A DNA stretch of 63,778 bases, counting the filler, from Stramenopiles sp. TOSAG23-3 (taxonomy: Eukaryota): assembly GCA_900128585.1 (NCBI GenBank). It is 7 parts of 7 records of this genome, joined end to end, with 100 filler letters (N's around TTAATTAATTAA, not from the genome) between each part and the next. Parts side by side here need not be neighbours in the genome. Positions count along the whole stretch, not along the records: positions 59,545 to 61,612 come from LT645112.1; 6 more parts are not named here. One strand, written 5' to 3'. Below, piece by piece: positions 379 through 61,826 of the stretch; the stretch's first letter is position 1, and the number at the start of each line of letters is the position of its first letter. Position numbers and translations under genes: made by a program. The notes under the pieces were generated by a model. The model searched no databases. It was not told where the DNA came from and saw nothing but the letters and a program-made list of their open reading frames with translations.

Positions 379-3300
379 ATGGCCAACGTCAACCCGAACT
401 CCTGGAGATACGTTTCCGTGCTGTTGTTACCAGGCACAAAGTGCTATGAACGGTTCACGGATGAAACCATTGCATCAGTAAGGCAAGAGATTATTGACGG
501 GATAAGCGGGGTTGGCCTCACCCCAAGAGAAAAGAGTAGGTTCCAGTACATCGACACTGCTTTCGCTAGCGCCGGTGGCTTCGCCTCCAAAATTGCGGCG
601 GACAAATCTACGGGTTTAGAACGAAAGAAAGCCGAAGTGGCAGAATACAAAGCAGCTCAAAAGGAAGCAGAGAAGGCTGCGGCGGCGAAGGCTAAAAAGA
701 ATGCCAGGAAAAGGGGGAAAGCGAAGGCGCCGAAGGCTGAGTCGAAGAAGAACCCGGAGGATGAGGTGCCAGATGAGCTGAAGCGAGATCCTGCGGCCAT
801 AAAGGCCTCTTTGTCACACATGCAGGACGAGGAAAAGTCGGGAGGAGGCGGGGGGAGGGGGGGGGAGTGGAAACGAGAGCGAAGCGGAAACGCCGTTAGG
901 GGATGGCGCCGCCAAGGCGCTTGATGTGACGGAGCAAGAGGGTGCGGCCGATATTATTTACATTTTAGGGGGCGATATCCCATCCCCCGAAAGTGTAGAA
1001 AGCTTGCTAAAGCACGACGGCCTTGGGGGTAAGAGCGACACCGTCGAATCCTCTCTACTCCACATCGTGGTGGAGCTGTCCTCTCACCGCCCGGTCCGTG
1101 CTGGCCTGAAGTCGCCTTCCCACGACTTGAAGGAGGCCGCCAAAAAGAACTTTCAGGCCTGGAAAAACCTACCTTTTCTTGAAGTAAAAGTAGACACACC
1201 GACGGAGAAACTGCGCGGCACTGGCCAAATCGCAAAAGACCTTTTGCGTGTCATCGGGGATACCGCGGTCGACCGGTACATGTACGACGAGTGGTTGAAA
1301 GCTGCCACAATTATCACCGTCCCAAAAACCACGGCAGGGATAAACGAGACGGCTAAACTAGCGAAGGATCACTACGATGTTATGATCAATCGTTTGAGAG
1401 AAGACTGTGGCGGCGTTTCTTTGGCCGTCCATTGCATGGCGGAAGCGGTGGTCCGTGCGCAGATAGGCGATGTGAACGAGTGGGGAGAGTTTGACGATGC
1501 CGTCAGCGCAGCGAAGCCCAGCAGTACCAAGAAGCAGGGCGGGGGGTCCTCTGTTCTTCTTGTAGTCGAGGATGGGGACAAAACGTTGCGGGATATTGCG
1601 TCTGCTCCGGGGAAAGACATATTAGAAGGTAAGATTGGGAGCGAAATGATAGTTGACATTGCTCAAAAACTTGGGTCACTTCTTCGAGTGCCGGGTGGCC
1701 TGGGCCGAGCAGGAATGCCTCGCCGGCCGACCTACAGCGAAGAGAGACGGGGAATGGATCGGACAGAATTGCTCACTTTTGTCAGCACATCGACGGGCCA
1801 GCTGCAACGAACCCAGTGGATGGCAATGTTTGAAAACATGCTGCAAGAGGCAGACCCTACCAATTCTAAAATATGGATCGATAGCGGTGCGTTTTACAAG
1901 CGTACCTGGCGAGAACGTATTTTACCGAACACCATCTCTCAAATTGTCGGGGAGGCCACCACGCAAGCGCGCAGGGGGGACGTTCTGACCTTTTATGATA
2001 ATGCCACCGACAAGTTGCTCGTTGCAGTACACACGCCTACTGCAGACGGTAGAATGAGGGAAGAACACTTTGATACTGGATCAAGCGGATGCTGCAGTGT
2101 ACCACCTGGCTTTGCGCGATGGTGCCGCTCGCGGAATGAACAGTTGAGCGCAAACATTACCCGGGCTCAACAAAAATATGCGGCTCTGCAGGACAAACTT
2201 AGAATGGGGGAGATGACAGCAAAACAAGTTGAAAGGGCCCAGAGCAAAATTGCGGCAAAGTCTGCGCGGACGGTTGCCCTCACTGCACCCGTGCTGTACA
2301 ATATGGAAAGCGCATTGATCCAGAGAGTCGAAGACGACCTGATATCTTTGTTTCCAGCCGATGGTGCCATTATACGCATTCGTAAGTTTAAACAGGGAAA
2401 GGTCGGGAACTGCGTGTGGACGACGGTAGAAAAGGACGGGGCCTGTTTTGGAATGAGGGAGCGGCTTCCGCGTGAGATTGCCCATAATGGAGCGGTAATT
2501 GCAACGAAGGGTTCTTCCAGGCCAAGCTCAAAAGGCAGCAAAAAAGGAGGTTCTCGCCCTGGTACACAGGGAAGTGACAAAGGGGGAGATTTGAACGATC
2601 AAGAGTACAGCTGTTTGTTCGTCGCTAACTTTGCTGATGGATCCAGGGCCACTGTTGACCAGGGCCCCTCTTTTCCAAAAAAGCCCGACGGGCATGGGAC
2701 CATACGTGCAATAGTAACTGGTAGGGACGGCTTGGCTGTAGAAGTAGGCACAGATGGATCCATCTCACAAAGATTTGTATCGAAATCGACGAAAAGACCT
2801 GCTGCAGCGGTAGGAGAGATATGCCGATCAATCATTCCGGGTGGGAAGGTCATACGGTACATGGAAAGTGGGAACATTCAAATTCTGTTTCCTAGTGGAC
2901 AGACTTCCGTGTTCCAAGCGAGTGGTCCTGATGCTGGCTCTTGGATAATAACGACCTCTGCTGGGTACAAGCTCAAAAGACCCCCGAAAGGAAGCATTGG
3001 GAAAAAAGGCCCAGAGGGTGTGCGTGGAACTGAGCTAATTCAATTGAAGCGTTGCCCAGTGCGGGTATCGACAGACCCTATTTCGCTGTCCAAGATTTTG
3101 CAGAGAAAAGATGGTGTATCTATGATTACATACATAGATGGGAGTGTCTTAACTACCCATGCCGATGGCACAACTATCCTGAAACAAGAAGGCAGCGGTG
3201 GGGAGGAAGACGCTGGGTTTGTGACCGTCACAGCCCCCGGTTTTACTAGGGTTGAGCTTGATATTGACGTGGACGAAAATGCATTCCGGCACGCAAACGG

Positions 3301-5674
3301 CCTTCGAATTGCTTTGTCAAAAGGCGGGATGCAGAAGCGCACCGGCTGTGTTTTGTCGGATGGAACGGTCATAGAAGCAATGTACAACACAAAGTTTACC
3401 GCAAGTGTAAATGGCAGTTTAAGCGTTTCTAAACCTGATGGTACAGAAATCGTTGCTTCTGACGATGGATCCGTGGAGTTTCGCCCAGGGTGTCTTGCAC
3501 CTGCAGACGGGGGGGCGTCACTGGAAGACAGAAAAATTGGACCAGACGGAAGCAAGGTACTGTCGGAAGCGCTGTCCGAGCCTGATACGACTACTGGTGT
3601 GTACTTTATCGATTGTTACAAAGGTGAAATGAGAACCAGTGACCCTGAGAACAACATATTTACCATCCAGATGGATGGAAAGTTCGAATTGGACTTGGCT
3701 GGCGAAGACGTAGCAGAGATTGACACCCCTGCCATAGTGAACAAACCGATTGAACCTAGGTTGTTTGTTCTCGAAGGAAATGGGTACGGCTACGAGTTTT
3801 TGAGACCAAGCGATGTTGAGGAATATTTCCGAAAAATACAAATTGATAGCACTGGTACCATTAGGAGGCTGGATCCCTCGCAAGCCATAGAATGCGCTTA
3901 CTCAAGAACTGATAAATCGAAAATCATGTATGACGTACTGGTGAGGAACGGAAAATTGTCTGAACCGAACTGCATGGACCGCCCTCCGGCTCCGGACAAA
4001 CCATATTTAGTTCTAACTGCTCCAGAAGCTGAAGTAAGAGCGCGAGAAGTTATTGTCGTTCGCAATTTAGAAGAAATGGAAGCATTGGATTTGGAATTGA
4101 AGGACAAGATATTTCGTGCGGAACGAGAGTGTGCGGAATGGCGCGATGCGAGAGAAGCGACTCAAGACAGGTTTGCTGTCGATGACGACCGAGACAAATC
4201 GGCTATTGATGCTGAAAAGGCAGTCGCGGCAGCAATCTTAGGTCTGAGGGATGTTAAGAAAGACGAGAAGGGAAAAGAAAGAAAGCCAAGTCGAAGAAGG
4301 AACAAGCGAGGGGCCCGCTCAACGTCCCGTAAAGCACAGAGCGCTGAGGATGTGGCTTCGAAGAAACCACCAGCTCCAGCCACGGTTGAAGGGGATGGTA
4401 GCAGCATAATTCTCCAGGGTGGCATTGAGAATAGTTCTTCGATGCTTGAAAGTGGGGACCTTACGGACCCGAATTCGTTAACAGATATAAACAGTTTGAT
4501 GAATAGCGCTTCTGTTTTGGAAGAAAAGTACGAAGAAAAATCTGCCGAAACAGGAAGTAAAGGAAGACGAAGGCGCCCAAAAGCTTCAGACCCTACTCGC
4601 GATGTTGGTGGGTTCTGGAAGAGCACAGAGGGAGTTCTTGCAACGGAAAGCATTATGAGCGTCCGTGGAGGTGAGACGATTGCTGAGGGATCAAATGTGC
4701 TTGAGGAGGAAGATTTAGAGGCATGGCAGAAGCAGCAATCGACAATGATGGGGACGTCGCCAGAAATGCTTGCCCGTGCGGAAAAAGAATTGGCTAGCGG
4801 CGCAGAGATCATTCCAAAGGCTAAACAAATAAATGGAAGTCAGAGGGAATATTCGGAAGTTGCAAACAAAGTTCAATTGAAACCGCTAACAAGTGAAGGG
4901 TCTGATCGAGATGCTCCTGTTGGCTCGGCCGTCGATGCCGCAAAAAACAAATCATCGTTGTCTGCTGCCGAAGAAAAAATGTTGCAGGATGACTACGAAC
5001 GGCTTCAATACCAAGGGGAAGAAATGGCCCGTGAGATTGCGGCTGAAAGGGCACGATCTGTGGGAAGAGGGGGGCAAGAAAATCGAGGGTCGCCAGAAGC
5101 AGTCCCGGGCAAGAAGGGTCGCATCAAATTGAACCGGTACAATGCAGAAGATTCGAAGGTTCGCCGAAAGATGAATACCTCCTCTACATTTTTACAGAGT
5201 AAAGTGGTAAGAGGGGTTGGTTCTGGGGGGCCAACGGAATACTTGCCGGCTGAAATTTTGCAAAATGCTGCCGCCTTCGAAGTGACTCCAGAGATCATCA
5301 ATTTGGGTCGACTATGTGCTGGGTGCTTGTACAAGACGACGGCAATGGTAAAAAATGTTGGTGCAGACACTTCCCGATTCCGGCTGACGCGACGAAACCA
5401 GCCACTTGATGGAGCTGGAAAATATGATGGTGGGCGAGATTCGGACATCCACAAAATGCGGGTGTTGTACCGGGCTGGCCCGTTGGCGGCAGGAATGCAT
5501 GCGAAACTTGACGTGGAGTTTGCTGCAAGCGGTGTCGGTGAAGTGGCTGATCATTTTGAGTTGGTTACCGAGCATCAGATCATACGTGTGCCGATTAGGG
5601 CAGAAATTGTTCAGCCGCTGGCCCACGATCCGCGCCATGTCCCGAAAGAAGTTACCTTTTTGAAAAAAATTTAA
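379..5674 (+). CDS. SPAG17: SPAG17/PF6-like flagellar central-pair protein, with one apparent frameshift in the G-run at ~850-866
   Basis: ORFs 361-924 (first ATG 379) and 926-5674 join if one G is removed from the poly-G tract, giving GGGSGNESEAETPLGDGAAKALDVTEQ. The protein has repeated beta-hairpin motifs (LFPADG, NFADGS, THADGT, KPDGT) and a C-terminal PapD/ASH-like domain (FEVTPEIINLG...VKNVGADTSRF...GPLAAGM), as in SPAG17/PF6. Confidence 0.65.
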
Positions 5675-6148: not shown

Positions 6149-7258
6149 ATGTTTTTTTCTCCCCGTTTTAACCACCAAAAATGTAAGGCCCAGCTAAAAA
6201 TGGCGACCATAAGGATTGCCCAGCAAACGAATAAGAAGACCCAGTTAATGAAAATTCAAAAGCGAAACATTGCTCAATTGTTAACCGACGGGAAAGAAGA
6301 GAAAGCTAGGATCAAAACAGAGGCAATCATTCGAGAGGACTTCGTGATTGAAGCGTACGAAGTGCTGTCGTTGTTGTGTGATCTTTTGTATGAACGAATG
6401 CCCCTTATCCAGAGTCTTAAACTGTGCCCGCCGGACTTGCGTGAGAGCGTATGCACTTTGATATATGCTGCAGCAAGGACGGAGATACCCGAGTTGATGG
6501 AGGCCAGAAAGATGTTTACTATAAAATATGGGAAAGAATTTGCCGAGTCTGCTCTTATGAACGAAAACAACGTCGTAAACAATAGGGTTGTGCACAAACT
6601 AGGCATCACCCCGCCTAACACATTCCTAATATTGCAGTATATGAAAGTTATTGCGAAAGCCCACGACGTAGAGTGGGATCCTAAAGAAGAAAATGTCTCT
6701 GAAGCTGACCTAGCCGCACCAATGCCTGCCCCATCTGGGTTTACTGTGCAAGCTGGTGTAGGAGGCGGTATGCAGGGTGTTTATGGACAGTTTAGTCAAC
6801 CAGAAGGGGTCACTGGTTCGAGCCCTGCTGCATCGCAACCAGCTCCAGACCGTGTACAGTGTGGCCAATGCGGAGCGATTTTAGCGGTTCCAGCAAATGC
6901 CCCACGTTTCGCTTGTCCAAATTGTGGGGCACTTCTAGCCTCCCCGAATGTCCCACAGGTAGCCAAAGCTGTTCTTCCTGTTGCGGACATAAAAATTATT
7001 CCCAACGATGACAATGGGACGAATAAAGGAGGGGACGACAACTCTGGCGGCGGCAGTGGTGGTGACCATTCCCTCCCTAGCCCTCCCGCAGAAGTCCCTC
7101 GAGACATTCCTCCTCCCCCTGGAGAAGAAGACGAAAAGGCCCAGTTTCTTCGGCAAGATGCAAAGGACAATGAAAAAAAGGGTGAAGATTCTGTGGAAGA
7201 TGATGGGGCCCCATCATTGGACTCACTTGCCGCTAGATTTGCCAGATTAAAAGACTGA
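6149..7258 (+). CDS. IST1: IST1 (ESCRT-III-associated regulator of Vps4) with an extra CxxC..CxxC zinc finger
   Basis: Ist1 domain (IAQLL...EEKARIKTEAIIRED...ESVCTLIYAA.RTEIPEL...KYGKEF), Pro-rich linker, and a C-terminal MIM1-like SLDSLAARFARLK. Confidence 0.93.
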   Translation: MFFSPRFNHQKCKAQLKMATIRIAQQTNKKTQLMKIQKRNIAQLLTDGKEEKARIKTEAIIREDFVIEAYEVLSLLCDLLYERMPLIQSLKLCPPDLRESVCTLIYAAARTEIPELMEARKMFTIKYGKEFAESALMNENNVVNNRVVHKLGITPPNTFLILQYMKVIAKAHDVEWDPKEENVSEADLAAPMPAPSGFTVQAGVGGGMQGVYGQFSQPEGVTGSSPAASQPAPDRVQCGQCGAILAVPANAPRFACPNCGALLASPNVPQVAKAVLPVADIKIIPNDDNGTNKGGDDNSGGGSGGDHSLPSPPAEVPRDIPPPPGEEDEKAQFLRQDAKDNEKKGEDSVEDDGAPSLDSLAARFARLKD

Positions 7259-45652: not shown

Positions 45653-47689
45653 ATGTCGTTGGCGTGGCGCACCATATTGTTAAAATCGAAGAGTCGGTTC
45701 GTGAGAGGCGCAAGGCCGTCGTCGCCATTTTTCACGCCATTTAGGCGTTTTCCATCGCACAGCGTCAGGACAAGTGCAACGAAATCCGGCTCGTCGTCGT
45801 TCCACGACAAATTGACAAATACCACCGAGGGGGAGACGGAAGATGCGAAGAAAAAATTGATTCGCGAGACGTGGCGGTACGTGTGGCCCGAGGACAAAAA
45901 GGAGTGGAACCTGTGGACCGGGGTTAAGCCGCGGGTCATAGCCGCGCTGAGCTGTATGATTGGTGGAAAGCTTATCATGATTCAGGTCCCATTTTTGTTT
46001 AAGAACATTGTCGACACGCTGGTGGTCCAGGCCCCCGGGGCAGCAGAGATTGCCCCGGAGCTGGCCACCGTCGCCACCACGGCGGTCCCCATGTCGTTGC
46101 TCCTCGGGTACGGCTTGGCGCGGAGCTCTGCGATGGGGTTTCAGGAGCTTCGCAACGCTGTTTTTGCCACCGTCGCCCAGCCCGCCGTCCGGCGGGTCGC
46201 TCGTGGGGTCTTTCAGCACATTCACAACCTGGACTTAAAGTTCCATTTGGAGCGCCAGACGGGGGCGTTGACGCGCGTCTTGGACCGCGGGTCTCGGTCC
46301 ATCTCGTTCGTAATGTCCGCCTTGGTGTTCAACGTCGTCCCGACCACGCTGGAGCTGGGGATCGTGTGCGGCATCCTTACCCACCAGATAGGGGTCCAGT
46401 ACGCCATGGTGACAACGGGGACGATCGCCGCGTATATCGCGTGGACGCTGGGGATCACCCACTGGCGCACGAAGTTCCGCATTCAAATGAACGCGCTGGA
46501 GAACGAGGCGAGCAGCAAGGCCGTCGACTCGTTGATCAACTACGAGACCGTGAAGTACTTCAACAACGAGGAGTACGAGGCAGACCGTTACGACGTCTCG
46601 CTGCGGGGGTACCAGAAGGCCGCCAGCAAAACGCAGACCTCCCTCTCCCTTTTGAACTTTGGGCAGCACGCAATTTTCAGCACCGGGATGACGGCGATGA
46701 TGGTGCTTGCGGCCCACGGGGTGGTGGACGGGACCATGACCGTGGGGGACCTGGTGCTGGTGAACGGCCTCTTGTTCCAGCTGTCGCTGCCCTTGAATTT
46801 TGTCGGGAGCGTTTACCGGGAGCTGCGGCAGGCCCTCATCGACATGGACCAAATGTTTACGTTGCGGCAGCAGCACCCCCAAGTGGTCAGCGCGCCGAAC
46901 GCGAAAACGCTGGACGTCAAGGGCGCGTCGATCGAGTTCGAAGACGTGAAGTTTGGCTACGAGGACGGTGGTGGTCGTCAAATCTTCGACGGCGTCAACT
47001 TCCACCTGCCCGCCGGGCAAACCATGGCGGTGGTGGGCGGGAGCGGGGCCGGAAAGTCGACGGTCTTGCGCCTGCTGTACCGATTTTTTGATGCACAGTC
47101 CGGCACGATCAAGGTAGACGACCAGGACATATCCGGCGTCACGTTGGACAGCCTTCGCCAGTCGATCGGCGTCATTCCGCAGGATTGCGTCCTGTTCAAC
47201 GAGACCATATTTGCCAACATCCAGTACGGGAATTTGAACGCGTCGGAGGAGGAAGTGTACGCGGCGGCGAAGGGCGCCCAAATCCACGATGCCGTCATGT
47301 CGTTCCCCGAAGGTTACGGGACGAAAGTCGGGGAGCGCGGCCTGAAGCTCAGCGGGGGCGAGAAGCAGCGCGTCGCGATCGCTCGGGCCATCTTGAAGAA
47401 CGCCCCAATCTTGGTGTGCGACGAGGCGACGAGCGCGCTGGACGGGTCCACGGAGACTCAAATCATGGACACGCTGCGCGACGTAAGCTCCGATAGAACC
47501 ACCATCATCATTGCGCACCGCCTGTCTACGATTCAGCACGCGGACCATATCATTGTGCTGGACAACGGAAAGGTCGCAGAGCAAGGGTCCCCGGAAGCGT
47601 TGATGAGCAACGAGGGGGGTATGTACCACAGGATGCTGCACGAGCAGCAGCAGCAGACGGGGGAGGACGACGCGCGGGGCCTGGAGTAG
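45653..47689 (+). CDS. ATM1: Mitochondrial ABC half-transporter ATM1/ABCB7
   Basis: Arg/Ser-rich presequence; [39 protein letters not shown]; Walker [10 protein letters not shown], signature [23 protein letters not shown]. Confidence 0.96.
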
Positions 47690-47839
47690 TCCCTCTGAAG
47701 AGATCATAGTTTTTAGTTCTCCTTAAATACGAAGTACATGATATGAAAAAACAAATTATTACTTACCACGCCCAGTATCAATTCTTAGTCATAAAAAAGT
47801 GCGCATATAATCTCTGTATAATCTTACGTGTAAAAACGA

Positions 47840-49003
47840 TTAAAAACCTTTCGCTTTCCCTACAATATTGTGGAACAACTCTTTGATCGTCTTCACAACG
47901 GCTTTGGTGGCCAGCTCGTCCGACTCACGGTGTGAGGTTCTTGCGTGGTAGGCCTCCTCAAACTTTGCGCACTGCATGGACGCTGCATCCACGGACGCTT
48001 TTGCGTTTTCGGCTATTAATCGGTAGCTCCAGTCGCCGGAGCCGGTGTTCAAGGCGTTCAGGGCCATAACGGCGCGCTTGTGCGTCTTCACCATATCCTC
48101 CAACTTGTCGTCCTGTTTCAAGAACTGGGACTCGGCCATGTTGAACTCGAGCTCCAGCCTCCCCAACTCTTTCTCGTAAAGACCCTTCGATTCTATCAAT
48201 TGCTTCGCATGTTGTTTGGAAGCAGCGTTTAGTTCGCCTCTAATCTCGTCCATGATTTCCTGCATGCCTTCCGGCATCCCGGTGGTCTTGGCCCCCTTCA
48301 CGACCTTGGGCTTTTCGTTGATCTTTGTGGCCGGGTCGCTCTCCTCTGGAAACTTCTTCGGGATCAGGGCGCGCTTGACGTGGGCGTGCAAGCGTTTCCA
48401 CAGCTTCGACATGTGCGAAGTGCCCCTAGAGCGCACTTCCAAGAAGGAGGCAAGGTTCTTCCCGTTCAATTTCGCGGCAAGGTCCGCGGCGCCCTTCTTA
48501 ATGTACTTTTCCAGGCTCCCAAGCATGCGATGGTTGTCCTTTGTAAACGCCTCGTGCACGGTGTGCTGGGCCTCCTCATGGACGCGTTGCTGTTTCAACA
48601 AGCGCAGGGTCTCGTTGACACGGTACATGACTTGCCGGAGCGCGTCGACCTTGTGGCGCTGGATGGTCACCATCTTGGCGGAGTCGCCGACGGCGGCCAA
48701 GTCTTCTTTCACTTTCAAGGTGGACGACTTCAAGTCGCTGACGTCCTCGTCCATGACCATCGTGGCGTTCTTGATCTCGCTCGCACAGCGTGCTTTGATG
48801 TGGCTGAACGTCGCCGCGTCCCTGTCCTGGTCGTGCCTCATATCCAATATGACTTTGCCGAGGGTATCTATCATAACTTGGGCAGGGGACTTCTTCCCTT
48901 TGAAGTCCATCTCGAATTCACCCGTGGGCGCGTCCCGGACGCCTACAGCACTCGCCGAAACGGCAAGCCCAACTAATACTAGAACCAACGAACGCGTGTA
49001 CAT
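47840..49003 (-). CDS. Secreted coiled-coil protein with an SFLEV motif
   Basis: Signal peptide MYTRSLVLVLVGLAVSASA; long heptad segments with isolated Cys on either side of ASFLEV. Confidence 0.7.
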   Translation of the reverse strand: MYTRSLVLVLVGLAVSASAVGVRDAPTGEFEMDFKGKKSPAQVMIDTLGKVILDMRHDQDRDAATFSHIKARCASEIKNATMVMDEDVSDLKSSTLKVKEDLAAVGDSAKMVTIQRHKVDALRQVMYRVNETLRLLKQQRVHEEAQHTVHEAFTKDNHRMLGSLEKYIKKGAADLAAKLNGKNLASFLEVRSRGTSHMSKLWKRLHAHVKRALIPKKFPEESDPATKINEKPKVVKGAKTTGMPEGMQEIMDEIRGELNAASKQHAKQLIESKGLYEKELGRLELEFNMAESQFLKQDDKLEDMVKTHKRAVMALNALNTGSGDWSYRLIAENAKASVDAASMQCAKFEEAYHARTSHRESDELATKAVVKTIKELFHNIVGKAKGF

Positions 49004-49369
49004 TCTTAATATAATAAAATAACGCTTTCTTCTCTACAAACGAACGACGCAAATGAGCAAGAAAGGCCTAAAGCTAGAAAGGAACCAAAAATTAAATGAA
49101 TTGGAATACAAACCGTAATGTATACACGAAAGAAACTAATCCCTAAATACTCACACTCAAATTGCACCCAGACAAGACGAAATGTACATTTGTCGCCTTG
49201 CTTCTTCTTCTTCTTCTTCTTCCCAACAGAAACGATATAAAATGAAATGGAAAAGGAATGAATTATTGTTGCCTCCCTAATTGTTTACCGAAGTACCTCT
49301 TACTACATTGGTATATAATACAAATAAGGAAGCAAGAAGAAGCTTCTTCACTTTCTTAAAATAATTTAT

Positions 49370-49612
49370 TCGAGATGGACAAAATAATCCATAATTAAGG
49401 ATATGTATATATAGGAATTATATATACTGTGTATATATAAAATAGGTATATTTTATTATATTTTAAATTCTATTTAGTTATAATTAATTATTAAGAAATG
49501 ATTTCATCTAAATCCCTTTAGATACATAGCTTTATGATAACAATGGATCTCATTTCGTTATCTCTATAAACTAATTTCCTTAATTTTAGGTGGCTTAACT
49601 CGTCCAGCCCTA
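49370..49612. mobile_element. MITE-like element copy 2
   Basis: The left part repeats 44752-44868. The right end 49577-49612 is the reverse complement of 44746-44781 at 32/36 positions. Confidence 0.6.
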
Positions 49613-49764
49613 TGCTAGATAAATGTCTTACTAATAGACTGTTATAATATAAAATACATACAAATAGAAAGNNNNNNNNNNNNNNNNNNNNNNNNNNNNN
49701 NNNNNNNNNNNNNNNCCTCTTTCCACTTTCTCTTTCTTCAAAAAAAATGGAGATTGACACCTCG

Positions 49765-49932
49765 TTAGAGTTATTAATAGGGTTAAGAGAAAACACATCA
49801 TTAGAGGTATTAATAGGGTTAAGAGAAGAACATATCATTAGAGGTATTAATAGGGTTTCAAGAAGAACATATCATTAGAGTTATTAATAGGGTTTCAAGA
49901 AGAACATATCATTAGAGTTATTAATAAGGTTA
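49765..49932. repeat. Minisatellite, 36-37-bp unit, about 4.5 copies
   Basis: TTAGAG(G/T)TATTAATAGGGTT..AGAAGAACATATCA in head-to-tail array with no spacers. Confidence 0.92.
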
Positions 49933-50281
49933 AAAGAGAGAGAGCCCAAGGAAACACCCTTGTGGAAGCGCTATCATAGTCGTTCTACAGCACGTTCTGT
50001 CCTCCTGTAGTACGGTACGGTACCGTACTTTTAAAAGTAAGATATAAATATAGATAACAAGTTTTTTTCTTAGTCGTCTGGATTCGATATTATTTATGCA
50101 TGTGTGCGTACCACCTAGCATAGGCATTATATTGTACTTTGCACGGTTAGGGTGAAAATATATAAAATGGCTTTTTGTATTTACACAACAGAGAGGTCAA
50201 GCCGCCTTAACACCTTCTTCCGGACACCCGAAAGGGGAAAAGGGGGACGACTTTCTTTGCGGTCTGTTCATCGACCATAAG

Positions 50282-52183
50282 TTAATGACCGGATGGTCCC
50301 GTTTCGGCCGCATCGTAGCAAGTTTGGTGCGCAAAATTCAAGAGAGAATCGTCGCAGCCCTTTGAGATCAAGTAGTCTCCTAAATTGTAGTACGCGTACA
50401 TAAAGCAAAAATGAAGCGCGGTGTTGCCGCTGCGGTTCGTCGCGTTGAGTTTTGCACTATAGCGGAGGCACAGCTTAACTATTCGTTTTTGGCCGTTTTG
50501 GCACGCTATGAGCAGCAGCGTGTTCCCGTGGGGGTCCCTGGAATCAACGGGCATGCCACCCTCTAAGGCGTTGCGGACCTCTTCGATCCGGCCGTGGCGG
50601 GCACGACTGAATACCATGGCGTAGGCACTGTCGTAGGTATCGCCGTCGTTCGTGTCCTTGGCGGGGCGTTCCGGCCCGGCCTTGGAATTTCTCCCACGCC
50701 GGACGAACCTGCCCTCGCGGGCCCGAAGGGAGGCTTTGCTGGCCGCGGGGGGAGTCTTCCCACGGCCCATGCCCCCACGGTTGTTGTTGGAGTGCCTGTT
50801 TTCCTCGTTCGAGAAGCTATCGTCGGAGGAGACTTCCTCCGACGCGCGAGCTGGCGTTTTCGGACGAAACTTCCGAGATTGTTGAAACTTTTTGATTGTT
50901 GCCGCGGGGCTTCGGTCGGACTGAAACATGGTCTTTATGCGCCGCGCGGTGTCTCCTTCCTCGGGGCTTTTCACGGGGGAAACGGGGGGTGCTGCTCCTG
51001 CGTGCCGCCGAGCGGGGGTTTTGTGATGCTGTTGGTAACCGTGCGCGTAACCCTGGTTCTGGGATGCCGGCGCGTACCCTTCCTCTTCGTACTTTTGCTC
51101 CACATTCCACTCCTCCTGGCCCAGCCAGTTCCCCTCCGCGTCATAGTTCTGGTCCCACTCCTGTTGTTGTCCAGGGGCTTCATACCCGTTGTTGTTGTAC
51201 TGTTCGCCGTTCCATTCCTCGCCCAGCCAGTTCCCTTCCGCATCGTAGTTCTGGTCCCAGTCTTGCTGGTGATGTTGGTGCCCGTGCTCCTCTTCGTGCT
51301 TCTGTTCACCGTTCCACTCCTCCCCTAGCCAGTTCCCTTCCGCATCGTAGTTCTGGTCCCAGTCTTGCTGTGCCTGGGCCTCCTCGCACTTTCCTTCTGC
51401 CTCATGGACCGCCGGCTCCTCCTGCTTTTCTTCCTCTTTGGACTCGTACGCGGCCGCCGCGTCGATCGCGGGGCTCCGCACCGGGGAGAACGGGGTGGAC
51501 GCGCTGGGCTTCCTCTTCCCCCCACTTTTTGGCGCGGGGGTCACCAGGACTTTGTTCAAACGCGCTTTATTTTCTTTACCCCCGTCTTCTTCGCCACTGC
51601 AATCTCCCCCTTGAACCCCCATCTTCAGCCTTGTCGGAGTAGGAATGTTGCCATGCTTAACCTTTTTCGTCTTGTTCTTCTTCATGGGGGCAGGCGCCGG
51701 GGCATCCTCTTTGTTCGCCTTTGGCTGCTTGGTTTTCTCGTACCATTTTCTCGGCTCGTCGTTTCGTTTGGAAGGCGTCACCTTCCCTTTCATTTTGTCG
51801 TCGTACTTGCTTTTGTTTTTCGCCTGATTGATTGATGGAAACGAACGCGCGGTTTCTGGGGACGCGTTGCCCCGGGCCGAGCGTTTTGGCTTCTCTATGA
51901 AACCGGTGGCTTCCGGCCTCGCCCTGCACTTCTGCCTCTGTTGTTCCTTGCGTGCGACCCTTTTCGCATTTTTCGAGGGAGTAACTCCACCGTACAATGT
52001 GTTTGGGTTCAAAGACACCAAGGTCGGCAATGGCCTCCGGTTATTACCATGCCGCATTGAGCGGCCTAAATCCATTTTTTTCTTCCGCAGGAGAGCCTCT
52101 GGTTGGAACGCAAACTCGTCGTCTGAGTCCGGGCGAGCGTTTACCCCGTGTTCTATGCATTTGGGTCCTGTCCAAATATCCAT
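50282..52183 (-). CDS. Ankyrin-repeat protein with internal Trp-rich repeats
   Basis: C-terminal DPHGNTLLLIACQNG and NRSGNTALHFC. Three WDQNYDAEGNWLG(Q)EEWN repeats. First ATG is at 52183. Confidence 0.85.
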   Translation of the reverse strand: MDIWTGPKCIEHGVNARPDSDDEFAFQPEALLRKKKMDLGRSMRHGNNRRPLPTLVSLNPNTLYGGVTPSKNAKRVARKEQQRQKCRARPEATGFIEKPKRSARGNASPETARSFPSINQAKNKSKYDDKMKGKVTPSKRNDEPRKWYEKTKQPKANKEDAPAPAPMKKNKTKKVKHGNIPTPTRLKMGVQGGDCSGEEDGGKENKARLNKVLVTPAPKSGGKRKPSASTPFSPVRSPAIDAAAAYESKEEEKQEEPAVHEAEGKCEEAQAQQDWDQNYDAEGNWLGEEWNGEQKHEEEHGHQHHQQDWDQNYDAEGNWLGEEWNGEQYNNNGYEAPGQQQEWDQNYDAEGNWLGQEEWNVEQKYEEEGYAPASQNQGYAHGYQQHHKTPARRHAGAAPPVSPVKSPEEGDTARRIKTMFQSDRSPAATIKKFQQSRKFRPKTPARASEEVSSDDSFSNEENRHSNNNRGGMGRGKTPPAASKASLRAREGRFVRRGRNSKAGPERPAKDTNDGDTYDSAYAMVFSRARHGRIEEVRNALEGGMPVDSRDPHGNTLLLIACQNGQKRIVKLCLRYSAKLNATNRSGNTALHFCFMYAYYNLGDYLISKGCDDSLLNFAHQTCYDAAETGPSGH

Positions 52184-59544: not shown

Positions 59545-59860
59545 TGTCCGAAGCAGCTTCTCGTACTCCTTGTTTGAATCCCTCCGTTCCGACTTTGTTC
59601 CCAAAATATTTTACCCCCTTCCCTACAAGATAATTTAATCCTTTTCCGACACCTGGAGCTCCGATTACAGCGCCGATGGTGCTCTCTAATCTGTTCCCTT
59701 TGAGTAACTGCTGGGAAGCTAGCGAAGAGATATCGCTTGCTTTCTTTGCTGTCGAAACTGAAACTGATAGTCGCTTGGCTTCTGCCCATTGATTAGTAAT
59801 AGAATTTAAATCGTTTGAATAACTCTGTAAATCGCTGTTGTATGTTAAAGCGTTGTTCAT
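59545..59860 (-). CDS. N-terminal part of a putative viral structural/membrane protein, inverted relative to its 3' part
   Basis: Starts at TATAATG (ATG 59860) and ends YFGNKVGTEGFKQGVREAASD, which matches all but one residue of the start of the plus-strand frame at 59908. Confidence 0.6.
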
Positions 59861-59907
59861 TATACAAAAGGCAGAGATATATTTATAGATGTTATATTTA
59901 AACATAT

Positions 59908-60612
59908 TATTTTGGGTACAAAGTCGGAACGGAGGGATTCAAACAAGGAGTACGAGAAGCTGCTTCGGACATCGGTAAATCTGTAAAAACAGGGCTAAAC
60001 AACGTACGAAGTGGTATCAGCAATGCACAGGAAAGTGTGGGTAGATTTACAAAAACGGTAGGGGACAACATCGGACCAGAAGGCGGTGCTGAGGGACCAG
60101 CAGAAACCGAATTAACATCTGTGCCTCGACCTCCCCAAGACCCAATGGAAGACGCAACACGGGACCAAGGACGAACTGGCTACCAAGAAATGAAAGACCC
60201 GGAGCCTGGAGATGCTAATGAACTACCAGACTCATGGAAATCAAAGCAAATGAGAGATATGGAAGAAACGAAGGAAGAAGAACCGGAGGAAGCAGAAGCT
60301 GGAGAAACTGAAGCTGGAGAAGTAGGAGGAGATGCCGCTGAAGTCGGTGAAGTCGGTGAAGCTGCTGAAGGTGCGACAGAAGCGGCTGGGACGGTAGCAG
60401 CTTCTGATTGGTGGAACCCTATCGGAATTGTGGCAGGGCTAGCCACTCTAGGACTTGGGATTTATGAAGGTGTTGAAACTGCTGAAGCCGCGAACAAAGT
60501 AGCAGAGTTAAAGAAACAAATCCCTAAAGACGTTCCCAAGATACCACAAATGCAAGCCCAAGCTGGGCGATACATCGTACCAGTACAGAATCGACTAACG
60601 CAATTTAATTAA
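59908..60612 (+). CDS. C-terminal part of the same protein: acidic Gly/Ala/Glu-rich region plus a hydrophobic segment
   Basis: The frame is open from 59908 (YFGYKVGTEGFKQGVREAASDIGK...) and includes WWNPIGIVAGLATLGLGIY. It lies directly upstream of the capsid-like gene. Confidence 0.6.
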   Translation, partial: YFGYKVGTEGFKQGVREAASDIGKSVKTGLNNVRSGISNAQESVGRFTKTVGDNIGPEGGAEGPAETELTSVPRPPQDPMEDATRDQGRTGYQEMKDPEPGDANELPDSWKSKQMRDMEETKEEEPEEAEAGETEAGEVGGDAAEVGEVGEAAEGATEAAGTVAASDWWNPIGIVAGLATLGLGIYEGVETAEAANKVAELKKQIPKDVPKIPQMQAQAGRYIVPVQNRLTQFN

Positions 60613-60662
60613 AATACTTTAAAAATAAAACGGTAGATTTAATCTATGGTTTTATATAAACT

Positions 60663-61612
60663 ATGAGTGCAATATCAACCATTCAGAAAATCATAAGAAC
60701 AGACACCCAAGGCACGTTTTTGCCAGAGGATGAGATAAGCATTAAAATACAACCAGCCGACGTACCCGTATTAAATGGGAAAGACAGCTATTTTCACTTT
60801 ACATTTCAATTTAAAAACGGAGACTTTTACGCTAATCTTGACCCCAACGGAGGAGGCGCTACTTCCATTTTTGAGCGCGTCATGATTTACAACGGTTCAG
60901 AGGATACTCTCCTAGAAACCATCGAGGAGCCAATGATATGGACGGGAATCAAGGACTACTACGAAAAAACCGAAGGATTAGAAAACGTACGAAGCCTTTT
61001 AGAAGGGTCCCAAAAGGACAACGTATTCAATTCCATATACTTCAAGCCTCCAGCAACAGGGCACGCCTCTGTTGACTACACCAGCGTGGAGATATGTTTA
61101 CCTCTCTACCAGTCCGGAGTCCTTTACCCAGAGAACGGCAAAGTTTTCCCCGTAGCGGCAACCGAAGGACTCGTTCTAAAACTGCAACTATGTAGCGCTA
61201 TGAAATGCGCTAAAGGTATCGTTATGAACGGTATGGTTCAACAGAGGAACAGACAAGGTTTAGACCCAGTTGTAGCCGACTTAAAGTACACCGTAGGGGC
61301 GGTTACAGCAGCCCCAGCTGGACCAGTAGCAGAAGACAACCCAGAAACCTTCGAAGTTGCAACCGACATAGCGGCAGGGGCCCTTGCCTTTATCGAGATT
61401 CAAGCAACTGGTGGGGCAGTCGGCGCTCCTAACGTAGGTATTAATAACTTAAAAATCAACGTCTTAGCCACTGACGTGGGAGGCGAGGACCCCGTGCCAA
61501 TGATTGTAGGCAATACACTGTACTACGTGTGCGATGCCGGTACAATCGTCAACGCCGGGAAAATAACGGCTATCGGTGCCGTAGGCGCTCCCACTGCCAA
61601 TAAAATCCGGAT
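60663..61612 (+). CDS. Polinton-like virus jelly-roll capsid protein, 3'-truncated
   Basis: Motif order F.P...I.I.I....LNGKDSYFHF / LD..GGATSIFERVMIYNG...LLETIE / R.LLEG / ICLPL..SGVL....KVFPV....GL.L.L matches PLV capsid proteins as I recall them. Short AT-rich spacer ending TATATAAACT-ATG. Confidence 0.7.
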
Positions 61613-61712: not shown

Positions 61713-61826
61713 GGATCTGCAATAGGAGGAGATATTGTTCTTGAACTGACACCTTCTTTTTTCTTTAATTTTAATTTACTATATAAAATAAAACCAGCGA
61801 ACAATATCTCCTCCTATTGCAGATCC
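61713..61826. repeat. Perfect 28-bp inverted repeat with a 58-nt spacer at a contig start
   Basis: GGATCTGCAATAGGAGGAGATATTGTTC (61713-61740) and its reverse complement (61799-61826). Confidence 0.9.

Follow-up and report, generated by a model that had tools for sequence, protein, structure and literature searches.

The locus is one whole, separate contig of 2068 bp, at positions 59545-61612 of the window (the stretch of 63,778 nt that was analysed, in which contigs are chained via N..TTAATTAATTAA..N linkers). It contains ORF1 (318 aa), a 50-nt spacer, and the start (316 codons) of a predicted capsid gene, ORF2. The features are as follows.

59545..59917, minus strand: inverted (fold-back) segment, with the ATPase gene tail, the ATPase-ORF1 spacer and ORF1 codons 1 to about 105-122
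59546..59860, minus strand: ORF1 codons 1-105, with the ATG at 59860-59858 and the protein start MNNALT
59907..59918, minus strand: end of the upstream gene (last three codons and stop), a putative A32-like packaging ATPase in relatives
59917..60612, plus strand: ORF1 from about codon 88-89 to the stop, with an acidic middle of low complexity, a hydrophobic segment rich in Gly/Ala and a C-terminal tail that is conserved
60409..60465, plus strand: hydrophobic segment of ORF1, WWNPIG...GLGIY, a candidate membrane helix
60613..60662, plus strand: 50-nt spacer, promoter-like region of the capsid gene, with motif positions matching those upstream of the structural genes of relatives
60618-60626, 60643-60646 and 60653-60659, plus strand: spacer motifs TTTAAAAAT, TCTA and TATATAA, respectively
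60625-60655, plus strand: spacer hairpin, overlapping the promoter-like motifs
60663..61612, plus strand: predicted major capsid protein (MCP) gene, first 316 of about 574 codons, with the first jelly roll and a variable insert, open to the contig end
61275..61532, plus strand: Ala/Gly/Val-rich variable region of the MCP (residues ~205-290), with low identity, length variation and low pLDDT

Layout of the contig and its inverted 5' end

The spacer was exactly 50 nt long, following the ORF1 stop codon (TAA at 60610-60612). The initial annotation had described a compact gene pair with TATA-ATG-type starts, and TATA-like strings were indeed read directly before both ATGs. It had also described an A-ending codon style. 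This held for ORF1, in which A made up 0.38-0.45 of the third positions, but not for ORF2 (A 0.31, C3 0.33). The consistent difference was a low G3 in both ORFs, 0.15-0.17 versus at least 0.225 in each of the window's 17 other long ORFs. When 30 proteins of relatives were compared with the window by tblastn, only the ORF1-like and MCP queries gave matches, and only on this contig. An Rfam scan of the contig gave no match.

The first 373 bases of the contig form a fold-back in inverted orientation, peculiar to this assembly. The arms of the inverted repeat, 59545-59608 and 59908-59971, were exact over 54 nt, or 64 nt with one mismatch, and a 319-nt loop lay between the 54-nt exact arms. In the likely source run, the Logan pieces broke at 59860 and 59918, and none of them bridged the junction. 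A contig of run X5 had the reverse complement of 59545-59752 joined directly to 59972-60455. Runs X2, X3 and X5 all departed from the window sequence just past 59918, and the loose end behind this position was identical in X2 and X3, with a close variant in X5.

The next contig of the window also opened with a terminal fold-back (28-nt arm, 58-nt loop). This similarity indicated an artefact of assembly or amplification.

A true rearrangement, that is, an invertible segment or a defective genome with ORF1 split in this strain, would be favoured by the one base that differs between the arms beyond the exact core, and the junction was produced by the assembler. On the other hand, no source-run piece bridges the junction, the order in X5 is colinear, all three runs carry matching upstream sequence, and the neighbouring contig starts with a fold-back too. 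We therefore consider a true rearrangement very unlikely. Since the fold-back is private to this assembly, ORF1 is one colinear gene in nature. With fold-backs in two contigs, genes called near the contig ends of this assembly deserve caution.

The two ORF1 pieces overlap via the inverted duplicate, and both matched a single colinear database protein of 319 aa (P0103), at 99% for the minus-strand piece (residues 16-120) and 94.8% for the plus-strand piece (residues 2-231). The length of 318 aa reconstructed in the initial annotation was in agreement with this. The MNNALT start was common to the ORF1 homologues of three relatives (L005, L006 and L007).

The predicted capsid protein

ORF2 matched a database protein of 574 aa (P0112) at 98% identity across all of its 316 residues, and in a contig of run X2 its frame carried on beyond 61607. 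The virus of the window is truncated inside its first MCP, and any further capsid genes lie beyond the contig. A search of 1.84 billion representatives with ORF2 gave 78 proteins at E <= 1e-3, seven of them at E <= 1e-30. Full-length homologues were mostly about 500-650 aa long.

Sequence comparison with described families was negative for ORF2. There was no family match in Pfam or PHROGs, and PDB sequence searches with ORF2 and with the MCP family profile gave chance-level matches only. A tblastn search against phage records gave one chance match (E 0.5), and scans of IMG/VR with ORF2, P0005 and P0103 found nothing.

The AF2 model of P0005, the closest full-length homologue in the representative search (45% identical), had a pLDDT of 85 and a pTM of 0.85. 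In Foldseek it gave 120 matches at E <= 1e-3 in BFVD, with capsid proteins of nucleocytoplasmic large DNA viruses (NCLDV) foremost and with virophage, adintovirus and Tetraselmis viridis virus S1 (TVS1) proteins among them. In the PDB it gave 149 matches at E <= 1e-3, with the SGIV and PBCV-1 Vp54 capsids at the top. The model of the 316 ORF2 residues of the window itself (pLDDT 80.7) had a TVS1 protein as its best BFVD match (E 3e-6, 20% identity).

The capsid assignment of the initial annotation was thus upheld by the predicted double jelly roll and by the Foldseek matches to giant-virus, virophage and Tetraselmis-virus capsids. These models support ORF2 as a viral double jelly-roll major capsid protein. 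The call rests on predicted structure, since the MCP family profile found no solved structure by sequence.

The Ala/Gly/Val-rich insert noted earlier was variable as proposed. Against six homologues its identity was 26-36%, versus 34-45% for residues 1-200, and the alignment length varied across it. It was the least conserved and least confidently modelled part of ORF2, the pLDDT falling under 50 at residues 213-215 and again at 250-275. This region may form a surface loop. The protein itself would assemble into trimeric capsomers, possibly joined by two MCP paralogues, an arrangement that has been proposed for Trimcap viruses.

Relatives, lineage and host association

Clusters were looked up for 10 of the 78 homologous proteins; their contigs reached 21-30 kb and came from metagenomes (Tara, JGI and others) and viromes. 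P0112 and P0103 (the latter at 95-99% to ORF1) represent the same species elsewhere. The longest contig on record was 3999 bp for these two proteins and 9.9 kb for the window's own species, members of the P0103 and P0112 clusters being encoded on contigs of 9.6-9.9 kb.

The order of the genes was conserved in relatives. An ATPase gene followed by an ORF1-like gene lay directly upstream of the MCP gene in L001, L003, L005, L006 and L007. In L004, which derives from a 28-kb record, the two were also adjacent, but about 4 kb from the MCP gene and on the other strand. The ORF1-like gene was thus the immediate downstream neighbour of the ATPase gene in all six relatives whose sequence sufficed, and in five of these it immediately preceded the first capsid gene. 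This bore out the earlier description of ORF1 and the MCP as a structural gene pair.

In L001, L005, L006 and L007 the MCP gene was followed by two capsid-sized genes, and in L004 these three genes were present but scattered. The second gene of the three was a paralogue of the MCP (hhalign 96%, E 2e-9); against the MCP profile, the third reached a probability of only 20%. A minor capsid (penton) gene was absent from the window contig, and relatives had capsid-sized paralogues, none of them identified as a single jelly-roll penton.

The gene directly upstream of the ORF1 homologues encoded 252-270 aa with Walker-like motifs, and the L004 candidate scored 0.98 against Pox_A32 clusters in the Atlas language-model search. 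The ATPase call in relatives is a language-model lead with motifs recognized by eye, and not an HMM match. These candidates had no match in Pfam, PHROGs or PDB sequences, the ATPase profile giving chance-level matches only. In the runs X2, X3 and X5 the loose ends behind 59918 translated to a C-terminus resembling the ATPase candidates of relatives.

The capsid-like, ATPase-like and recombinase-like neighbours that were scanned gave no match in Pfam or PHROGs; the sole Pfam matches were those of the L007 primase-helicase (DUF5906, 3e-19). Pfam scans of 16 ORFs from relatives, whose genomes are incomplete, yielded neither a cysteine protease nor a protein-primed PolB or RVE integrase. The relatives also carry a giant ORF.

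The contig had been annotated as Polinton-like virus (PLV), the group as defined in the accessible part of Yutin et al. 2015 (PMC4642659), with a double jelly-roll MCP of PgVV/TVS-like sequence type, a packaging ATPase of A32/FtsK type, a penton protein and a genome of some 15-40 kb. The relatives, on small-virus contigs of 21-30 kb with PLV-type content, agreed with this. We consider it likely that the contig is a 2-kb genome fragment of a small eukaryotic dsDNA virus, Polinton-like (Preplasmiviricota) and most probably of the multi-capsid Trimcap/group X lineage, a placement drawn from the gene layout of relatives and not from reference Trimcap sequences or profiles. It would span part of a morphogenetic module, comprising the last codons of the ATPase gene, ORF1 and the first 316 of about 574 MCP codons.

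The likeness to the Trimcap/group X viruses, as given in the accessible parts of Bellas & Sommaruga 2021, Piedade et al. 2024 and the 2026 preprints, extends to marine occurrence, a probable size of ~20-30 kb, a putative A32-like ATPase, and an MCP followed by further divergent capsid-sized genes, one of which was confirmed here as a paralogue. These viruses are abundant in IMG/VR, Tara and virome data. PMC7805220, PMC10120064, PMC11502894, 10.64898/2026.06.19.733378 and 10.64898/2026.05.28.728513 place them among the most abundant marine PLVs and already in unclassified stramenopile (MAST) assemblies. One difference is that the window virus is visible only to the middle of its first MCP. The suggestion of an undescribed system was not sustained, the layout of the relatives fitting these published viruses.

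The TVS/TsV group of PLVs (TVS1, TsV-N1) shares the minimal module of MCP and (putative) ATPase, and TVS1 gave the best BFVD match, but sequence similarity was too low for HMMER-level detection in the libraries searched. That structural match, at 20% identity, was the sole indication of a PgVV/TVS-like MCP sequence type. Virophages (Sputnik, Mavirus, OLV) and Polintons have in common with the window virus a predicted double jelly-roll MCP, a putative ATPase of FtsK/A32 type and a genome that is probably small; the MCP was, however, less like those of virophages than those of NCLDV.

The NCLDV capsids (PBCV-1 Vp54, SGIV MCP), and not those of PLVs or virophages, were the best fold matches of the full-length model. 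This would favour a capsid gene from a giant virus (Nucleocytoviricota) or from another double jelly-roll group, and the 2026 framework preprint, in its accessible part, has Trimcap members binned inside three giant-virus MAGs. However, the sequence identity to the NCLDV capsids was 8-10%, the homologue contigs were at most about 30 kb, and the loci that were read had the content of a small PLV-type virus with no NCLDV hallmark genes. The window protein's own best BFVD match was, moreover, the TVS1 protein. An origin of the gene in either is thus highly improbable, and the fragment is best read as that of a PLV.

The relation of this PLV to the organism of the assembly is less certain. Relatives at 85-99% nucleotide identity occurred in runs of other studies labelled viral or marine metagenome, and the virus probably circulates as free particles in seawater. 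Word shares with the contig were small in runs X7-X19 and 0.05 in the one RNA run (X20). Its presence in a protist assembly may reflect infection, ingestion, a co-sorted particle or integration.

An endogenous copy in a protist chromosome would be in keeping with the frequent integration of PLVs, and Trimcap-type MCPs are recorded in unclassified stramenopile assemblies (PMC10120064 and 10.64898/2026.06.19.733378, as far as these sources are accessible). The low depth of the contig in the likely source run (about 3-4.6) also points this way, as does a 335-aa ORF of L004 with a C-terminus that was recombinase-like by eye. This ORF, however, had no Pfam or PHROGs match. The contig was viral from end to end and held no virus-host junction, its left end being the fold-back and its right end lying inside the MCP, and pieces at 85-99% identity came from viral metagenomes. 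Integration appeared unlikely to us.

A virus unrelated to the assembly organism, whether eaten, stuck, co-sorted or a library contaminant, is a serious possibility, although we put it somewhat short of even. The close relatives in several virome and marine metagenome runs of different studies are in its favour, as are the low depth and the near absence of the contig's words from two other runs of the same study. Third-position GC ranged from about 0.4 to 0.8 across the window contigs, and with composition varying this widely the assembly may mix organisms. The association of Trimcap MCPs with stramenopiles in the accessible literature is, on the other hand, compatible with a real infection, without being proof of it.

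The spacer motifs and the ORF1 protein

The imperfect palindrome described in the spacer was confirmed by RNA folding, at -11.6 kcal/mol versus -3.0 +/- 1.8 for shuffled sequences (z = -4.8); none of 200 shuffles folded as well. As a feature of the family the hairpin was rejected. None of the equivalent 50-nt spacers of seven relatives folded better than about 20% of its own shuffles.

The motif TTTAAAAAT was present in 15 of 55 upstream windows of relatives, and all 15 belonged to ORF1-like genes, MCP genes or the two downstream capsid-sized genes. Gene bodies held it 6 times in a total of 64.8 kb. In all but one of the 15 motif-bearing regions TTAAAAAT began between -42 and -48; upstream of the window's capsid gene it began at -44, with TCTA at -20. 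Across the whole window TTTAAAAAT was not enriched (5 matches versus 2.9 expected), so that its signal lies in position and in the relatives. The pair of TTTAAAAAT (~45 nt) and TCTAT (~20 nt before the ATG) is promoter-like and restricted to structural genes in relatives.

A TCTA-containing element near start codons is also shared with virophages and Polintons, TCTA being the core of the late promoter of Mavirus/CroV.

ORF1 was acidic as first described, with a net charge of -25 over residues 121-250 of P0103. The WWNPIG...GLGIY segment was present, and its best 19-residue Kyte-Doolittle mean of 1.46 was borderline for a membrane helix. It was kept in all eight aligned members of the ORF1 family. 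ORF1 had no family match in Pfam or PHROGs. An Atlas search with an ORF1 homologue gave a best score of 0.83, under the level of meaningful matches, and the nearest named clusters were the ejection proteins T7 gp14 and P22 gp7 (0.75-0.77, flagged as often due to chance). A complex predicted without alignments for the L001 MCP and the last 77 residues of the ORF1 homologue from the same relative scored 0.00, which speaks neither for nor against an interaction.

ORF1 may be a virion protein that is expressed late and is either lodged in a membrane or acting on one. A more specific proposal, which we regard as doubtful, is that it represents a conserved, undescribed virion protein family of multi-capsid marine PLVs, acting as a membrane-anchored linker or membrane-penetration protein. 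Such a protein would consist of a basic helical head, an acidic spacer, a membrane segment rich in Gly and Ala, and a C-terminal tail that docks on the capsid. A late promoter particular to the lineage (TTTAAAAAT, ~17 nt, TCTAT, TATAA) would drive its expression along with that of the capsid genes. The accessible parts of the main texts of the Trimcap/group X literature mention neither the ORF1 family nor the TTTAAAAAT/TCTAT motif.

The contig adds one more fragmentary marine PLV in a protist assembly, a real but ordinary finding. No new system is opened by it, since the literature already documents PLVs in protist assemblies at scale. ORF1, which is conserved, matches no family and bears a segment of membrane type, has modest value for follow-up. 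The sharply positioned motif of the structural genes could bear on the question of giant-virus dependence in these very abundant viruses. Should the promoter correspond to the late promoter of a giant virus that occurs alongside them, these PLVs would be dependants of the virophage type, and the motif could then be used for pairing PLVs with their helper viruses.

The virus contig and its two genes

The window consisted of contigs chained by N-runs with the TTAATTAATTAA linker. The segment at 59545-61612 was a single complete contig of 2068 bp, among five contigs of about 2.07 kb at the window end. It carried a capsid gene (ORF2) and, upstream of it, a gene for an acidic protein (ORF1) split between the two strands:

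Features of the virus contig
60663 to contig end, plus strand: ORF2 (MCP gene, 5' part), from ATG at 60663, open, 316 codons (ORF reading)
60610-60612, plus strand: TAA stop codon of ORF1 (direct reading)
From 59972, plus strand: C-terminal part of ORF1, 213 unique codons
59860 down to 59546, minus strand: first 105 codons of ORF1
59545-59608 and 59908-59971: arms of an inverted duplicate shared by both ORF1 parts (64 nt, one mismatch; exact core 54 nt)

The initial annotation had described a reconstructed ORF1 of about 318 aa and a 50-nt spacer between the genes. Both were borne out: the 105 minus-strand and 213 plus-strand codons add up to 318 aa, and the positions of the ORF1 stop and the ORF2 start leave a spacer of exactly 50 nt.

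A 319-aa database protein, P0103, was colinear over both ORF1 pieces. Residues 16-120 of the minus-strand piece matched its residues 1-105 at 99%, and residues 2-231 of the plus-strand piece matched residues 89-319 at 94.8%. Contigs from four public sequencing runs (X1, X2, X3 and X5) were aligned to the virus contig. A marine-metagenome contig from X5 joined the reverse complement of 59545-59752 straight to 59972-60455, giving a colinear ORF1. The X2, X3 and X5 contigs all diverged from the window sequence right after 59918. Beyond this point the X2 and X3 continuations were identical and that of X5 was a close variant; translated, they gave a C-terminus resembling the ATPase candidates of the relatives. 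X1, the likely source run, contained 0.87 of the virus-contig words at a depth of about 3-4.6, and none of its pieces bridged 59861-59917. The inversion is confined to this assembly, and we interpret the first 373 bases of the contig as a chimera from assembly or amplification and not as biology.

The contig that follows likewise began with a terminal fold-back (61713-61826), in which exact inverted arms of 28 nt enclose a 58-nt loop. Such a fold-back at the contig start was found in 2 of the 11 contig pieces of the window.

The capsid protein and the ORF1 family

ORF2 had no match in Pfam, PHROGs or PDB sequence searches. HMMER, run exhaustively against 1.84 billion representatives, returned 78 proteins at E <= 1e-3, of which 26 passed E <= 1e-10 and 7 passed E <= 1e-30; full-length homologues were mostly about 500-650 aa. 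P0112 (574 aa), obtained when longer proteins were sought, was 98% identical across all 316 ORF2 residues. ORF2 therefore represents the N-terminal 55% of a protein of 574 aa.

Among full-length homologues from the representative search, the closest was P0005 (45% identity), which was modeled with AF2 from a 41-sequence alignment (pLDDT 85, pTM 0.85). Foldseek gave 120 BFVD matches at E <= 1e-3, headed by NCLDV capsid proteins (best named, 1.3e-16) and also covering ascovirus, ASFV, virophage, adintovirus and Tetraselmis viridis virus S1 proteins. Against PDB it gave 149 matches at the same threshold, with the SGIV capsid and PBCV-1 Vp54 on top. ORF2's own 316 residues (AF2 pLDDT 80.7) gave 20 BFVD matches at E <= 1e-3, nearly all capsid or capsid-derived, the best being a Tetraselmis viridis virus S1 protein (E 3e-6, 20% identity). 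These predicted structures identify ORF2 as a double jelly-roll major capsid protein, in agreement with its initial assignment as a viral capsid gene.

A variable Ala/Gly/Val-rich surface insert had also been proposed. The stretch is present (about residues 205-290) and is the poorly modeled part. Among six homologues it was 26-36% identical, versus 34-45% for residues 1-200, and it differed in length, with an insertion of about 100 residues in one. That it faces outward we only infer.

ORF1 belonged to no family in Pfam, PHROGs or the protein atlas. In all six metagenome loci with enough sequence, its homologue immediately followed the ATPase candidate, and in five of these it also immediately preceded the MCP gene; in L004 the module was rearranged. 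Seven of eight aligned family members had an MNNALT-type N-terminus. The head is basic (net charge +7 over P0103 residues 1-120) and probably helical. It is followed by a variable middle that is strongly acidic (net charge -25 over residues 121-250). The family also has a Gly/Ala-rich hydrophobic segment, borderline for a membrane helix (best 19-residue hydropathy 1.46), and a conserved C-terminal tail. We read ORF1 as a putative late virion protein sitting in, or acting on, a membrane, from its position in the structural module, the promoter motif it shares and the hydrophobic segment. The 'membrane-penetration protein' of the initial annotation would be one version of this putative role.

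Gene content of relatives and a promoter-like motif

Ten ORF2 homologues were looked up; the contigs bearing their clusters, from Tara, JGI and other metagenomes, reached 21-30 kb. Gene content was read in seven loci, L001-L007. The recurring set comprised a Lys-rich protein, a P-loop protein of 252-270 aa (the ATPase candidate), the ORF1 homologue, the MCP and two further capsid-sized genes (442-490 aa and 501-537 aa). The P-loop protein had no match in Pfam, PHROGs or PDB sequences, and its protein-atlas score against clusters carrying Pox_A32 was 0.98. The gene after the MCP gene was an MCP paralogue (hhalign 96%, E 2e-9); the third capsid-sized gene showed weak similarity to the MCP (20% probability). 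L007 also encoded an 821-aa primase-helicase (DUF5906, 3e-19; weak PriCT_2 match). This gene content is probably that of Polinton-like viruses (PLVs), which Yutin et al. 2015 (PMC4642659) define by MCP, minor capsid protein and packaging ATPase. The type of virus first named was the right kind.

Other ORFs were observed in these loci. Very large ones, both open at the locus end, followed the capsid genes in L001 (8376-11834, 1153+ aa) and L007 (15783-21611, 1943+ aa), and may encode fibre or surface proteins. The former had a short PQPDLIT-like tandem peptide repeat and no match in a Pfam scan. In L004, a 335-aa ORF adjoining the ORF1 homologue (3082-4089, minus strand) had a C-terminus that looked tyrosine recombinase-like by eye, with no Pfam or PHROGs match. 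A 188-aa ORF of L007 (15072-15638) combined an NPPF motif with a weak methyltransferase match below the cut-off (PF05175, E 0.009) and is a possible DNA methyltransferase gene.

The late promoter common to Mavirus and CroV has TCTA as its core. In the relatives, TTTAAAAAT occurred in 15 of 55 upstream windows, all 15 upstream of ORF1-like, MCP or the two downstream capsid-sized genes and none among the 40 others; across 64.8 kb of gene bodies it was found just 6 times. In 14 of the 15, TTAAAAAT started at -42 to -48, and in many cases TCTAT came after it near -20, with TATAA just before the ATG. The window MCP gene had TTAAAAAT at -44 and TCTA at -20, and direct reading found a one-mismatch variant of the motif at the same distance upstream of ORF1. 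We read the TTTAAAAAT/TCTAT pair as a candidate late or structural promoter.

In L001, a Tara contig, three consecutive capsid-type genes had near-identical 50-nt upstream sequences (3416-3475, 5220-5279 and 6642-6701), which look like a duplicated promoter cassette. The spacer palindrome described initially does form a hairpin in the window (z = -4.8); it was absent from all seven relatives tested and is not conserved.

Occurrence, host and lineage

No host DNA was present on the virus contig. When 30 proteins of the relatives were used in tblastn, only the ORF1-like and MCP queries matched, in the virus contig alone; the other window contigs had no genes of this virus. G3 was 0.15-0.17 in the virus ORFs versus at least 0.225 in all 17 other long window ORFs. 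The virus may have reached this assembly by infection, ingestion, co-sorting or integration.

Long ORFs at 45653-52183 had about 0.7-0.8 G+C at third positions, versus about 0.45-0.55 in most other contigs, and the contig at 53036-55106 was AT-rich. This assembly could be a mixture of organisms, or of genome compartments that differ greatly.

At least part of the virus contig was found in 20 of the 22 listed runs (14 studies). All seven X1 pieces were at least 99% identical to it. X2 and X3, labeled viral metagenome, had 13 and 9 pieces at 85-99%, and X5, labeled marine metagenome, had 4. Close relatives thus circulate in seawater viromes.

The several capsid genes of the relatives fit the Trimcap group described by Bellas & Sommaruga 2021 (PMC7805220) in gene layout and by the published descriptions; the window's own virus is cut off inside its first MCP gene. 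Piedade et al. 2024 (PMC11502894) give the same group as 'group X'. Two 2026 preprints (10.64898/2026.06.19.733378 and 10.64898/2026.05.28.728513) describe it as the commonest type of PLV in their analyses and in a marine time series, and Bellas et al. 2023 (PMC10120064) describe it as 'found in unclassified Stramenopiles'. The features noted initially are real, but they do not amount to an undescribed system: the contig is most probably a piece of a virus from a known, abundant lineage.
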